In this document: positions 2,349-13,091 of the stretch, piece after piece
How positions within the stretch are numbered: the stretch's first letter is position 1
How the letters are laid out: every line of letters begins with the position of its first letter
Assembly (NCBI GenBank): GCA_021498095.1
Contig: JAIZWK010000001.1
Location: forward strand, 1,830,001 to 1,862,000
Reading direction: 5' to 3'
DNA from: Candidatus Harpocratesius repetitus
GTDB lineage: Archaea > Asgardarchaeota > Lokiarchaeia > Sigyniarchaeales > Promethearchaeaceae
DNA: 32,000 nucleotides
Position numbers and translations under genes: made by a program
Notes under the pieces: model-generated
The model's database searches: none
The model's input: the letters and a program-made list of their open reading frames with translations, nothing else
What the model was told of the DNA's origin: nothing

Positions 2349-3422
2349 ATGAATGATTATAACCCTTTTCCTCAAGATCTCTCTTCTTTGCACGATAAGA
2401 TTTCAGATAATCCATTTAAGAATTATACGATCAGAGATTATCAAGAAATTGGGAAAAAATACGATCTTTTTCTCTCTGAAGCAAGTGTAGCTTATCAAAA
2501 AGGAAAATCTGTGTTGCATAATATAAGTTTGTTTTTAAAACCAGGGGAAATATTAGGATTGATTGGAGGAAGTGGTGCTGGGAAAAGCACATGCATGAGA
2601 GTAATGACCGGTCAAATCAAACCTCCTCAATTGACCCATGGGTTTGCAGTTACTGCAGGATATCGTGCGGTTAGGGATAATTTAAAATTAATTCATCAAA
2701 TTGGCTATGTTCCACAATTAGAATATCTCTCTTTATACGAACAATTTTCGGCTCTAGATAATTGCCTGTTCTTTGGTAGGAATTATTGTATTTCAAAGAA
2801 ACAGATTTTAAAAAGAGCTCGTGAGATTTTAGGTATTTTGGGATTTGAAAATGAAGAATTACTGAATAAACCTGTTAAATATCTTTCAGGTGGCGAACGA
2901 AAGCGAGTCTCAATTGCTGTTGGGCTTATAAATACACCAAAAGTATTATTCCTAGATGAACCGACTACTGGTTTAGATCCACATCTTAGAATCGGTGTTT
3001 TAAATTTCCTATTAAAGATTAACAAGGAATTTAATACAACAATGGTAATCGTATCACATGATTTAGAAATCGCGGATTACTGCACTAAAGTTGCTATTCT
3101 TAATTTTGGAGAACTGGCAGGTTTTGGAAAACCAAAAGATCTCGTGGAATCTTTACCAAGCCATGGGAAGATGTTAAATATTCATCTAAAATCCTATAAT
3201 TCACGGATTCATCTTAGAAAAATAAAAGAAATTGCTGGAATTCGTTATGTCTTAAATGCAGGAAGAAATCAAATTAAACTGTTTTCTGATGAAATTGAAA
3301 ATTTAAATTTAATAATTTCACAATTAAGAGAGATTGGTTTGGAAATTGAACATTTTAGTTTAGATCAAGCTGTTTTTTTAGAATATTTTCGCATAAAAGG
3401 AAAACATATTGAGGGGGTTTAG
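2349..3422 (+). CDS. ABC-2 type transporter ATP-binding subunit (A1)
   Basis: Walker A GGSGAGKST, Q-loop VPQ, signature LSGGERKR, Walker B LFLDEPT, H-loop VSHD, and a C-terminal DUF4162/ACT-like domain. Confidence 0.95.
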   Translation: MNDYNPFPQDLSSLHDKISDNPFKNYTIRDYQEIGKKYDLFLSEASVAYQKGKSVLHNISLFLKPGEILGLIGGSGAGKSTCMRVMTGQIKPPQLTHGFAVTAGYRAVRDNLKLIHQIGYVPQLEYLSLYEQFSALDNCLFFGRNYCISKKQILKRAREILGILGFENEELLNKPVKYLSGGERKRVSIAVGLINTPKVLFLDEPTTGLDPHLRIGVLNFLLKINKEFNTTMVIVSHDLEIADYCTKVAILNFGELAGFGKPKDLVESLPSHGKMLNIHLKSYNSRIHLRKIKEIAGIRYVLNAGRNQIKLFSDEIENLNLIISQLREIGLEIEHFSLDQAVFLEYFRIKGKHIEGV

Positions 3423-3424
3423 AG

Positions 3425-10800: not shown

Positions 10801-13091
10801 AAATTGGCTGGATTCTTGGAGATATGGATCAGTTTTCTGAAACACCATCGATTACTGATTTAGAATATCTTTTATTTCAAAATCCTGAAATAACAGATTA
10901 TAGAGAGATGACAGACAGTATTGATGTTAATTATCTTTCTAACATTCTTTTCCGCAATATTTTTATTATTAACGCTTCTCTTTTAGAAAACAAAAAAATC
11001 TCGACCTTTTTAGTAAGTCCTTTTAATCTTGATATCGCTCCGATGCAGATTTATACTCCCCTTGATTATGCTGTTTATAATCTTTCAATTTTAGCAATTC
11101 GAGATATTAATAATATAGAAATCTCTACTGATGGATTGGGAAAGCGAATTGTCCAATTTATGGAATATTCGTTAATAAATACTCCCTCTTTTTCACTTTT
11201 ATCTTCTAAAAAATTAAATTTACATACATACAATTCAATCCCTCTAATACTTTTTGGTAATCCCCTCATTCCTCCTGGTCAAATTAATTTTAATATAACA
11301 TTTCGACTTGAAGGAGAGAGTCAACCCTTTTATTCAATTCCAGTATCTTTCCAAATGAGTCCAACTCGAGGTCGAGTCTGGTTTGATGCTACCCATTTAA
11401 ACTTTTTCCGATCTGAAAAAATAAGTAATCTGGCATCTTTAACAAGTTTTGGCGATATTTCTAAATTGAATTTGTCTGCAGAAGAAAATTTCGGAAATTT
11501 TAATGATATCTTAAAAGGAAATTTCGATATTTCATCAATATTCGATTTAAATGAGCGACTTGACACTACTTGGGGAAATTATTATGATCTACATTCATCA
11601 TGGGCTAATCCAACTTCAAATTTTGGAAAGGGTGCCTTAGTATCAACAATTCTTCCATTTTTGGATCTTAATCTTTCACAATTTTTTGATTTTTCTCAAT
11701 TTAAAAATGAATCAGAATCGAGTAATGAACAGGATTATTTCTTTAATACACAAGATCTTCTTCCAGAGACAAGTTTTTTGGGTGATTCTATTGGAAATTA
11801 TAAATTTGAGAATGAAATAATATCCACTACAATAATCAATCACGATCTACTTCAATTTTTTGATGTATTGGTCATCAATGATCCTGAACAAGCATTTACC
11901 AAAGATGAAATGGATGATATATATGATTGGGTTGATTCTGGAGGGACTTTATTTGTTTGGAGTGAAGATTATCTTCATTCAAATTTAGAATCATTAAACA
12001 ATTTATTGGATGAATTTGGGTTAAAATTTGCCAATTCATCCTTTTATCCTTATGATACATATAAACAATTTGAGGGTAATGATGGACTATGCTATTTAGA
12101 CTTTTCTGCTTCAGATAAAATTAGTTCATTATTCCAATCAACAGGATTCTCAGCAAATTCTATTGCACTACGCGATCCAATCGAAATTTTTTCTACCAAA
12201 TCAGATTCTCAAATTCTTGGTTATAAAACTATGTTTGATGGAGAACATGGCGTAATCGGTCTTTCCACTTATGGGAAAGGAAAGGTTTTTGCAATAGGTG
12301 ATTCGGATATCTTTAAAAGATCTTATCTTTCAAAAGCAGATAACTCTAAATTCGCCCAACAGTTAATCCAATGGGGGCTTTCAAAATATTATAATATGAA
12401 AATTGAAATTACTCCATCAATTCTACCCTTTTCTACTCAAGGTTTTGTAGATATCTCTTTTTCAAATTTTGAATACATGAAGGAACGAAATTTATTTTCC
12501 AATGGATTTTTGTTTCTTGGACTCTATTTTGATTCAAATGGAAATCCAATAAATGCCAGTATATACGGGATTGAAACTCCACTTCTTCCCTTATTTGAAA
12601 CTGAACCTGGGCATTATGATACCTTTTTTGATACTAAATGGATAAATCAAACAGGAATATATTATATATTATTAATTATAGATCATCCTGCAGCTGTAAG
12701 TGAGATTTCATATCTTTCTTTTAATGTAGTTGAAGGCCCTCCCTCTTCGATTATCCAACAATATCAGATACCCAATCCTTCATATCCTCACTATATTGAT
12801 ATTATTGGTGTATTTGGTATTATTCTAATGATGGCTGGATTATATTACTACAATCAACAGAAAAGTAAAACTCGATTGAAAATCATTCCTCTTCAAGGTG
12901 ACTATTTAAATTTGGCCAAAACGCGATTATATGAAGGTGAAACCTTACTAAAACTTATGTTGCGAGGGATTAAAAAAACAGATGTGGAAGAAATTGAACG
13001 ATTGCGCTTTTTACTTTCAAATCAAAAAAGAGTAATCAAATTCTTCAAAGATTTAAATAAATTTGGAGAAACTATAGGAGAACATTACTGA
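7803..13091 (+). CDS. Large membrane-anchored S8 (subtilisin-family) homologue, predicted catalytically inactive, with CARDB-like and GIFT/DUF4350-like domains and a C-terminal TM helix
   Basis: N-terminal hydrophobic segment, I9-like prodomain, S8 scaffold motifs (GKGVVIALLDTG, GVAPDA, SSRGP, PDVIAPGV). Triad positions read D202 (kept), R249 (His expected) and G468 (Ser expected). CARDB-like segment at ~10600-10830, GIFT-like segment at ~11370-12380, TM at ~12800-12850, then a ~78-aa cytoplasmic tail. Confidence 0.9.
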   Translation: MQQTRQKTKIYGKIFRKQVNIFFIFLILMIPGLFLHFQSPAIQNNNFNFLQMINKSTPNSLKTSTYAHIDPRLADLIKNNEDPYKKVNVLLFFSDKPVKYSELSKYGTIQISFTLLKGCKFETTLSHIEKLGLLPYIQSIWWDLPIPTSIPSSNIIESSSFSIKAEYKTQSTEFVNFTNEINANQLWQRGISGKGVVIALLDTGIDISGSGGGNLDDLDDNSSTNDPKFLGGVSMVPDEPLYYTDLTGRGTFHAGIACGTAGLNPEYIGVAPDAKYLNVKIFDSLGITYWSFMISGIEWAIEHGADIILFVATIPGLYLDPVCQIVNAAVDRGVIVITPVGDDGPSYMSVNTPGQANQAISVGAYNSITKEVWEHSSRGPSYDFHVGPDVIAPGVDLIGPRARYLTNESIELAVNFITQISPEMTAVLNSQLNSLQAEFDTLSNSIPKSPYGTPLSEDSSFTRASGTGAAAAVCAGGVALLLNAFPLATPVIIQQALMRGAHSISFPQDINSEGSGLIDLLASYSWLQDFYKKNFTDFQSSSVPLFYSGMITNEDLTNVSQYSTDLNYSQIENTTFSAFMSSQMMSSALVINTLNESNPLNVQNISIHLPLNQFGVGYSLSGDSEDFEFHWLSEFKVVKEMHEMVNTIVYPDGYRRYVSILEFNGLYIACLVETWAYIGEKSDTISTFNFTSPLTGESYQTGLNFSTLKLTHRLNAFKFSFHFMNERKDHQSFRNLTLISFIKGDLFVNETGTLDNLNYKGFDAENTLEFMKDDIVIFDSQSQMMWVEDFDNSSNLLNNPRYAAIGFVSSSHNLSSFAVGNSFNILLNISQAKLANSTWNSNISKDVVFSQKNSTNSLIDPSFAQLYSLNDLEFGTTSEFNGVMSISQANSISECRDIVKSNAELLQTNTTNYNVTDLIVFSASFSRIHEPHVPYQSSVKILNLGNQIIPNTQLVFYSNRTVKHGESEIYSRIISIQNLQPFNLKSYNTSWIPLDSGIYQIGWILGDMDQFSETPSITDLEYLLFQNPEITDYREMTDSIDVNYLSNILFRNIFIINASLLENKKISTFLVSPFNLDIAPMQIYTPLDYAVYNLSILAIRDINNIEISTDGLGKRIVQFMEYSLINTPSFSLLSSKKLNLHTYNSIPLILFGNPLIPPGQINFNITFRLEGESQPFYSIPVSFQMSPTRGRVWFDATHLNFFRSEKISNLASLTSFGDISKLNLSAEENFGNFNDILKGNFDISSIFDLNERLDTTWGNYYDLHSSWANPTSNFGKGALVSTILPFLDLNLSQFFDFSQFKNESESSNEQDYFFNTQDLLPETSFLGDSIGNYKFENEIISTTIINHDLLQFFDVLVINDPEQAFTKDEMDDIYDWVDSGGTLFVWSEDYLHSNLESLNNLLDEFGLKFANSSFYPYDTYKQFEGNDGLCYLDFSASDKISSLFQSTGFSANSIALRDPIEIFSTKSDSQILGYKTMFDGEHGVIGLSTYGKGKVFAIGDSDIFKRSYLSKADNSKFAQQLIQWGLSKYYNMKIEITPSILPFSTQGFVDISFSNFEYMKERNLFSNGFLFLGLYFDSNGNPINASIYGIETPLLPLFETEPGHYDTFFDTKWINQTGIYYILLIIDHPAAVSEISYLSFNVVEGPPSSIIQQYQIPNPSYPHYIDIIGVFGIILMMAGLYYYNQQKSKTRLKIIPLQGDYLNLAKTRLYEGETLLKLMLRGIKKTDVEEIERLRFLLSNQKRVIKFFKDLNKFGETIGEHY

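Follow-up and report, generated by a model that had tools for sequence, protein, structure and literature searches.

Eukaryotic site-1 protease (S1P; MBTPS1, SKI-1), as resolved by cryo-electron microscopy of S1P-SPRING, comprises a signal peptide, two pro-domains, a Peptidase S8 domain, a P-like sandwich, a GIFT domain, a transmembrane (TM) helix and a short tail, and its GIFT subdomain (residues 617-998) packs on the S8 loops that carry the oxyanion Asn (PMC11231238). GldAFG, the gliding-associated transporter of Bacteroidota, pairs an ATP-binding cassette (ABC) ATPase and an ABC-2 permease with a GIFT protein anchored in the membrane, the three being encoded together. OST48 (DDOST; Wbp1 in yeast) is a subunit of oligosaccharyltransferase built from a GIFT domain, a β-sandwich, a TM helix and a short tail; homologues of WBP1 have been reported in Heimdallarchaeia only (PMC10307638). 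Archaeal proteins of arCOG01314 (DUF4350; Makarova et al. 2015) consist of an external domain between a signal peptide and a C-terminal TM helix (PMC5898192). The locus described here lies in a 32,000-nt stretch of the Asgard archaeon Candidatus Harpocratesius repetitus (Lokiarchaeia, Promethearchaeaceae; contig JAIZWK010000001.1, positions 1,830,001 to 1,862,000; GC content about 30%). The whole stretch is called the window and its numbering is used throughout. Five open reading frames (ORFs), all on the + strand, occupy positions 2349-13091 and encode two ABC ATPases (A1 and A2), two ABC-2 permeases (P1 and P2) and S8G, a membrane-anchored pseudo-subtilase with a GIFT domain (Table 1).

The order A1-P1-P2-A2-S8G was found in eight genomes of Asgard family f1. 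Three g13 genomes of f3 had the same order with A1 inverted. In f4 and f23 a single permease gene was present, and the genes A1<-P<-A2 were divergent from S8G; in f11 the order was P->A2->S8G->A1. The coupling of the S8-GIFT gene to the ABC genes, put forward in the preliminary description, was thereby recovered across Asgard families as synteny or co-occurrence, in four gene orders. Co-distribution was surveyed in a phylum sample of 301 genomes, using the GIFT domain plus tail of S8G and the N-terminal domain of A2 as queries. Both queries matched the same families and both were absent from the large families f9, f16, f18 and f31 and from most of f3; related genomes are not independent, and the co-occurrence counts were therefore taken as qualitative. 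Genome G011 contained no more of the cluster than a relic of the A2 N-terminal domain of approximately 480 bp, with stops and an internal deletion (L119:9013-9493; G011:C1 about 3,445,012-3,445,492). The P2 query found no permease in this genome, and the full-length S8G query gave just S8-domain matches of another subtilase. The full cluster was present in G007, a metagenome-assembled genome congeneric with G011, and G010, a closed genome of 6.04 Mb from the same family, also carries it. Taken together, the four gene orders and the joint loss speak strongly for a functional unit. Full-length relatives of S8G were recovered solely from records labelled Promethearchaeum, Promethearchaeota, Promethearchaeia and Ca. 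Sigynarchaeum, plus one labelled Bathyarchaeota, and bacterial matches to S8G covered the S8 domain alone.

The S8 domain of S8G was aligned by HMMER with Thermococcus Tk-SP (3afg/9ues). The DTG motif was kept, and GHGT, GN and GTS were replaced by GRGT, GD and GTG. The earlier reading of an S8 fold devoid of catalytic residues was upheld by R249, D342 and G468, with the qualification that D202 is kept. Active sites were compared in 24 family members from eight Asgard families, 22 of which were ABC-linked giants from seven families (the window's own protein included). The Ser was gone and the oxyanion Asn was Asp in 22/22 giants. The catalytic His was kept in f6, f11, f12 and f23 and gone in f1, f3 and f4; the f4 giants had also lost the Asp, and D202 was kept in f1 and f3. 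Loss of the nucleophile from all 22 giants indicates that it is older than the split of these families, with decay of the triad going on later. Mean identity to the window's protein was highest in the S8 domain (49%) and second highest in the tail (42%), the other external parts giving 23-33%. That the S8 domain is the best conserved part despite its dead site fits a scaffold kept for binding. With the nucleophile and the oxyanion residue both lost, S8G would be expected to bind rather than cut. Comparable use of a subtilase scaffold is seen in CspC, the Clostridioides germinant receptor, and in mature PCSK9, which bind and do not cut; unlike S8G, neither has a GIFT domain, a membrane anchor or an ABC partner. 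The NCBIfam CspC/CspBA models gave local matches to S8G at residues ~343-401 only.

The C-terminal third of S8G was matched above cut-off by two Pfam families, DUF4350 (PF14258; residues 1355-1522, 38.9 bits, cut-off 30.4) and IFT52_GIFT (residues 1344-1423, 36.6 bits, cut-off 27.2). Residues 1150-1700 were modelled with AlphaFold2 (AF2) from an alignment of 19 sequences, giving a pLDDT of 76.6 and a pTM of 0.73. From N- to C-terminus, the model comprised two short β hairpins, an α/β domain, a β-sandwich and a long TM helix, and approximately 130 residues after the first strand of the α/β domain (RVWFDATH) formed a disordered or poorly modelled insertion. Foldseek searches of the PDB and Swiss-Prot placed human OST48/DDOST and yeast Wbp1 at the top (E 1e-12 to 1e-14, ~400 aligned columns), the alignment spanning the whole subunit, i.e. 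GIFT domain, second domain and TM helix. The IFT52 GIFT domains ranked next, followed by mouse S1P residues 584-1034. VIA-align searches per domain gave Z-scores of 22.4 and 22.0 for IFT52 (root mean square deviation (rmsd) ~3 Å, ~210 residues), 19.2 (9csd_A, rmsd 3.0 Å, 206 residues) and 18.7 for S1P, and 17-19 over ~300 residues for OST48/Wbp1, with generic GATase1-like proteins at or below 16.9. The GIFT/DUF4350 assignment made from the sequence alone therefore held, the modelled segment having a GATase1-like GIFT fold nearest IFT52, S1P and OST48. Among AlphaFold DB clusters, prokaryotic DUF4350 proteins 480-560 residues long matched best (E 5.6e-18). Because these match better, the likeness to OST48 lies at superfamily level, and a special OST48 kinship was weakened as a candidate. 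As modelled, the C-terminal module is of the DUF4350 branch of the GIFT superfamily.

The remainder of S8G was less readily assigned. Searches of the middle region (residues 526-1185) gave just weak CARDB- and NPCBM-like leads; the β-rich character of the region is listed in Table 1, and the CARDB-like immunoglobulin segment of the preliminary description drew only 16-17 bits from the CARDB model against a cut-off of 22.7, so that this label is weakly supported. The single TM helix expected after the GIFT segment was located by hydropathy at the predicted place. The cytoplasmic tail that follows it was 75-83 residues long in the 16 orthologues in which the TM scan located it, covering all seven lineages, and its conservation argues for an intracellular partner. 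A complex prediction of A2 (residues 1-565) with this tail scored 0.02, which counts neither for nor against binding. The ectodomain was enriched in N-glycosylation sequons (33, against 21.3 +/- 4.2 in shuffled sequences); S8G itself is probably a glycoprotein, which is as far as the enrichment goes.

Both ATPases had canonical motifs. In A1 these were Walker A GGSGAGKST, signature LSGGERKR, Walker B LFLDEPTTGLD and an H-loop; in A2 they were GESGAGKST, LSGGQKRR and FLDEPTSGLD, with the H-loop intact. Judged by these motifs, A1 and A2 provide two competent nucleotide-binding domains (NBDs). A1 has a further C-terminal domain of ~100 residues beyond the NBD and scored 165 bits, under the cut-off, with the DrrA-type subfamily model. 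A2 has a Lys-rich C-terminus and an extra N-terminal domain. Residues 1-255 of the window's A2 had no Pfam match, and a feature search of the protein atlas with them was also empty. The AF2 model of this domain (pLDDT 83.4) was subjected to an exhaustive VIA-align search, in which TrmB structures stood first (3qph_A, Z 12.1; 2f5t_X, Z 11.7) and the next match scored 7.2. Foldseek gave TrmB probabilities of 0.99-1.0. Sliding clamps, at the top of the Foldseek results, had very poor TM scores and were set aside as multi-domain β-noise. PF11495 (Regulator_TrmB) was matched by 6/18 orthologous A2 N-terminal domains (best 1.2e-11), and the ESM Atlas contained an archaeal cluster, mostly Thorarchaeota, of ABC ATPases with PF11495. 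On the strength of the model and these matches, the domain is of TrmB type; as A2 alone has it, the ATPase pair is asymmetric. By hydropathy, P1 has a first TM helix at ~32-50, an external loop of ~160 residues and then a TM bundle, and P2 likewise has a loop of about 160 residues behind its first TM helix. The two permeases are ~25% identical and cross-match each other in searches. Intact-motif ABC_tran ATPases beside ABC-2 family permeases give the transporter the sequence features of an ABC-2 (type V) exporter.

S8G shares with S1P a common order of parts, namely a signal sequence, an N-terminal pro-like region, S8, a β-rich spacer, GIFT, one C-terminal TM helix and a cytoplasmic tail. The preliminary description presented the combination as possibly undescribed; as regards S8-GIFT-TM, it is pre-empted by the published architecture of S1P (PMC11231238). 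S1P is an active protease (D218/H249/S414/N338), whereas the His, Ser and Asn are replaced in S8G. In S8G the stretch between S8 and GIFT is also longer by ~650 residues, and the tail is longer and conserved; unlike S1P, S8G is genetically tied to an ABC-2 transporter. Against the PDB, its S8 domain matched Tk-SP at 1e-28 and S1P at 1e-13, and was closer to archaeal and bacterial subtilisins than to S1P. None of the MBTPS1 Pfam models, MBTPS1_4th included, matched S8G at E <= 0.1; weak sub-threshold matches to MBTPS1_4th occurred just in the relatives L033 and L030. Specific S1P orthology thus found no support in the sequence. The nearness of the S8 domain to Tk-SP, the unmatched MBTPS1_4th model and the other differences mean that the shared order of parts does not amount to a demonstration of specific common descent with S1P.

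Families f13 and f22 contained shorter S8-GIFT membrane proteins with intact Asp/His/Asn/Ser and S1P-like spacing from S8 to GIFT, and with sub-threshold matches to MBTPS1_4th or OST48_N. The S8-GIFT gene of L033 adjoins an ABC ATPase and an FtsX-type permease, and that of L034 comes after two ABC ATPases and a DUF63 protein. It is conceivable, and in our judgement rather improbable, that the S8-GIFT-TM proteins of Asgard archaea represent the prokaryotic stock of eukaryotic S1P, with the GIFT-sandwich-TM part akin to OST48, active S1P-spaced forms in some lineages and an ancient, dead, ABC-coupled form at the present locus.

By type, the system would count as an ABC transporter whose auxiliary membrane protein has a GIFT domain, for which GldAFG is the prototype. 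In both, the ATPase, the ABC-2 permease and the membrane-anchored GIFT protein are encoded together. The GldAFG-like machine of the preliminary description was sustained at the level of an ABC transporter with a GIFT partner, but not at the level of the Gld families. A1 and A2 scored 119.7 and 115.6 bits with the GldA equivalog TIGR03522 (cut-off 402.6), generic ABC models being equal or better, and the GldF and GldG NCBIfam models did not match P1, P2 or S8G at E <= 0.1. The permeases belong to another ABC-2 subfamily (PF12698) with large external loops, the transporter has a pair of ATPases, of which A2 bears a TrmB-like domain, and GldG lacks the protease domain of S8G. PF09822 (ABC_transp_aux), the auxiliary component of an 'ABC-type uncharacterized transport system', gave 21.1 bits on the window's S8G (cut-off 34.7); 11/13 S8G orthologues matched it at E < 0.01, with L031 alone passing the cut-off. 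The GIFT domain of S8G scores best as DUF4350/IFT52_GIFT and not as PF09822.

The last ~450 residues of S8G have the build of OST48/DDOST/Wbp1. OST48 serves an oligosaccharyltransferase, whereas no STT3/AglB was found here among the four flanking ORFs scanned (window 2-1823, 13469-15758). With arCOG01314, S8G shares an N-terminal signal, a large external domain, a single C-terminal TM helix and the PF14258 match. The arCOG01314 genes lie beside MoxR-type AAA+ and vWA genes and have no S8 domain, whereas S8G is a pseudo-subtilase with an ABC-2 partner; AAA+ and vWA genes were absent in Pfam searches of the cluster and the four flanking ORFs. Literature on GIFT/GldG/IFT52, Asgard OST48, DUF4350 and Asgard S1P/subtilases yielded no description of this system. 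New relative to the literature found are the joining with a TrmB-domain ATPase, the ancient pseudo-enzyme state and the Asgard-wide distribution.

The reading that we tentatively prefer, at somewhat less than an even chance, is that the five products form one membrane complex: the ectodomain, with its dead protease and GIFT domain, would act as a binding module which the ABC engine serves, and a glycoconjugate may be what is handled. The physical complex, the direction of transport and the sugar-related nature of the cargo are all features that we infer. In this scheme the heterodimeric A1/A2 ATPase pair would sit on the P1/P2 permease pair, with both loops of ~160 residues facing outward. S8G would be a type-I-like extracellular accessory subunit with a receiving or binding role, its S8 scaffold and GIFT domain paired as in S1P and its GIFT-sandwich-TM part built as in OST48/Wbp1 and the archaeal DUF4350 proteins. 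Its attachment to the transporter would be through the TM helix and the conserved tail of 77 residues. The TrmB-like domain of A2 might let a sugar or sugar-bearing ligand in the cytoplasm gate ATP turnover, or might recognise it as cargo. Wzt of O-antigen exporters has a carbohydrate-binding domain and offers an analogy for such cargo recognition. The most likely job of such a complex would be ATP-driven and serve surface assembly: exporting or handing over to the S8G ectodomain a glycoconjugate, either a lipid-linked glycan or a glycosylated component of the surface.

Several observations weigh against this proposal. The sugar link draws on fold families, namely the TrmB effector domain and GIFT, as modelled. 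To our knowledge, PF12698 permeases are not of the Wzm type of known glycan exporters. AglB/STT3, glycosyltransferases and other glycan-related genes were not found in the four flanking ORFs scanned. In f6 the transporter is on another contig than S8G, and in f12 an A2-P-A1 operon lies away from S8G in the genome, both sets being present in each case. The GIFT domains of IFT52 and S1P are protein-protein modules and not sugar binders (PMC9753473, PMC11231238).

Transcription is a further such point. The ORF listing reproduced exactly the five co-directional genes and the intergenic distances first noted (2, -4, 26 and 12 bp from A1 to S8G; the P2 start runs 4 bp into the end of P1), and the starts of P1, P2 and S8G are closely preceded by purine-rich GGAG/GGGG motifs. 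The statement that these genes are almost certainly one transcript can apply at best in the window's family, the genes being divergent, reordered or unlinked elsewhere. The 26-bp P2-A2 spacer (5836-5861) is very AT-rich (TTTTTTTAAGATAAAAAATATCTAAT) and could hold a TATA-like element or internal promoter giving a leaderless A2-S8G transcript; the cluster may thus be two transcription units. A scan for σ70 promoters and terminators was at chance level, the σ70 model being ill-suited to archaea.

The main rival to the binding-and-export complex is mechanotransmission without transport, of the FtsEX-EnvC, MacB or LolCDE kind. ATP hydrolysis would then move the P1/P2 loops and switch the S8G ectodomain to capture and release, or to activate, an extracellular protein. 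We regard this as fairly unlikely, though several observations favour it. Large external loops are present in both permeases, conservation within S8G peaks in the S8 groove region, the GIFT domains of S1P and IFT52 bind proteins, and a dead-enzyme partner is what EnvC provides for FtsEX. In L033, from another Asgard family, the active S8-GIFT protein stands beside an ATPase and permease of the classic mechanotransmitter class. However, ABC-2/PF12698 permeases belong with the exporter fold and fall outside the FtsX/MacB class, recognition of a ligand or cargo is the easier explanation for the TrmB-like cytoplasmic domain, and no candidate extracellular client was present among the flanking ORFs scanned. 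The likeness to FtsEX-EnvC, an ABC engine with an extracytoplasmic pseudo-enzyme, is a functional analogy alone: FtsX is not an ABC-2 permease, the partner fold is unrelated and EnvC has no C-terminal TM anchor.

The two sets of genes may instead have separate functions, the ABC-2 transporter being a generic exporter (of a drug, lipid or ion) and S8G an independent adhesin, receptor or scaffold, adjacent through shared regulation or chance. The unlinked genes of f12 and f6 and the divergent transcription in f4 and f23 are what such independence would give, but the same partners are kept through four gene orders, both sets are present or absent in the same families, and their joint loss in G011 left the A2 relic alone. 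In f11, moreover, S8G lies between A2 and A1, and the conserved tail implies an intracellular partner; we consider separate functions quite improbable. That S8G is still a hydrolase through a non-canonical site, e.g. the kept D202 with His253 (the His of 'GRGTFH', four residues past the lost catalytic His in most f1/f3 members), is very improbable indeed, since the family has Gly, Ala, Leu, Asp, Ser or Thr in place of the nucleophile, Asp invariably replaces the oxyanion Asn, f4 lacks the Asp, the His and His253, and G010 lacks both His residues.

If the proposed complex of transporter and S8G is real, it constitutes a cell-surface system that is conserved in Asgard archaea and as yet undescribed. 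The system would unite an ABC-2 engine having a TrmB-type-domain ATPase, a long-maintained pseudo-protease and the GIFT module of S1P/OST48/IFT52, which are not known together. It would also make the building or remodelling of the unusual surfaces of Asgard archaea more tractable, and the S8-GIFT pairing of S1P would gain a concrete comparator among prokaryotes. Set against the cluster in its relatives, the joint natural loss in G011 points to contrasts that experiments could use. Were the S1P-stock reading true, the cluster would be a surviving archaeal machine for processing surface proteins or glycoconjugates, and a source of part of the eukaryotic secretory-pathway toolkit.

Table 1. Features of the A1-P1-P2-A2-S8G cluster (window numbering unless a locus is given; aa, amino acid residues).
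Feature	Coordinates	Strand	Basis
A1, ABC ATPase, 357 aa	2349..3422	+	ABC_tran 4e-26
P1, ABC-2 permease, 395 aa	3425..4612	+	PF12698 6e-18, hydropathy
P2, ABC-2 permease paralogous to P1, 408 aa	4609..5835	+	PF12698 7e-14, hydropathy
A2, ABC ATPase, 642 aa	5862..7790	+	ABC_tran 6e-30
A2 N-terminal domain, aa 1-255, predicted TrmB effector (sugar-binding) fold	5862..6626	+	Model and fold search
S8G, 1762-aa membrane-anchored pseudo-subtilase with GIFT domain	7803..13091	+	Pfam, HMMER
S8G hydrophobic N-terminal segment (signal peptide or signal anchor), aa 19-37, preceded by a basic stretch	7857..7913	+	Hydropathy
S8G S8 subtilase fold, aa 193-502	8379..9308	+	Peptidase_S8 4e-32
S8 D202, kept	8406-8408	+	HMMER alignment
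Catalytic H replaced by R249	8547-8549	+	HMMER alignment
Oxyanion N replaced by D342	8826-8828	+	HMMER alignment
Nucleophile S replaced by G468	9204-9206	+	HMMER alignment
S8G β-rich middle region, aa 527-1185; weak CARDB-like stretch aa 917-1001	9381..11357	+	Sub-threshold matches
S8G GIFT domain, aa ~1189-1530	11367..12392	+	Pfam and AF2 model
S8G predicted β-sandwich domain, aa ~1531-1655, between GIFT and TM	12393..12767	+	AF2 model, fold searches
S8G single C-terminal TM helix, aa 1664-1682	12792..12848	+	Hydropathy; model helix at residues 515-542
S8G cytoplasmic tail, 77 aa (1686-1762), ending ...FGETIGEHY	12858..13088	+	Orthologue alignment
Short active-type S8-GIFT protein, 1257 aa	L033:788-4558	-	Triad intact
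Short active-type S8-GIFT protein, 1238 aa	L034:4280-7993	+	Triad intact

The surroundings of the cluster were also recorded. Upstream lies an ORF of 378 aa (687-1823) which matched no Pfam family and has a counterpart of 60% identity in G002. After A1 in the f11 genomes comes another very large ORF running the same way (L035:17279-19999, >900 aa; L037:13580-16999, >1100 aa), truncated in both by the limits of the retrieved stretch. The interval from S8G to the next gene of the window contains a small ORF of ~74 aa with two hydrophobic stretches (13187-13411, +). A protein of ~400 aa with an N-terminal zinc ribbon is encoded 3' of the cluster in both genomes of the genus (window 13469-14722, +; L014:14855-16027). 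Two genes 3' of S8G, the window encodes a DsbD_2 membrane protein (PF13386; 14856-15758, +). In G009 a DsbD_2 gene (L016:1516-2349, -) lies directly 3' of S8G, and this gene may be a family-level neighbour of the cluster.

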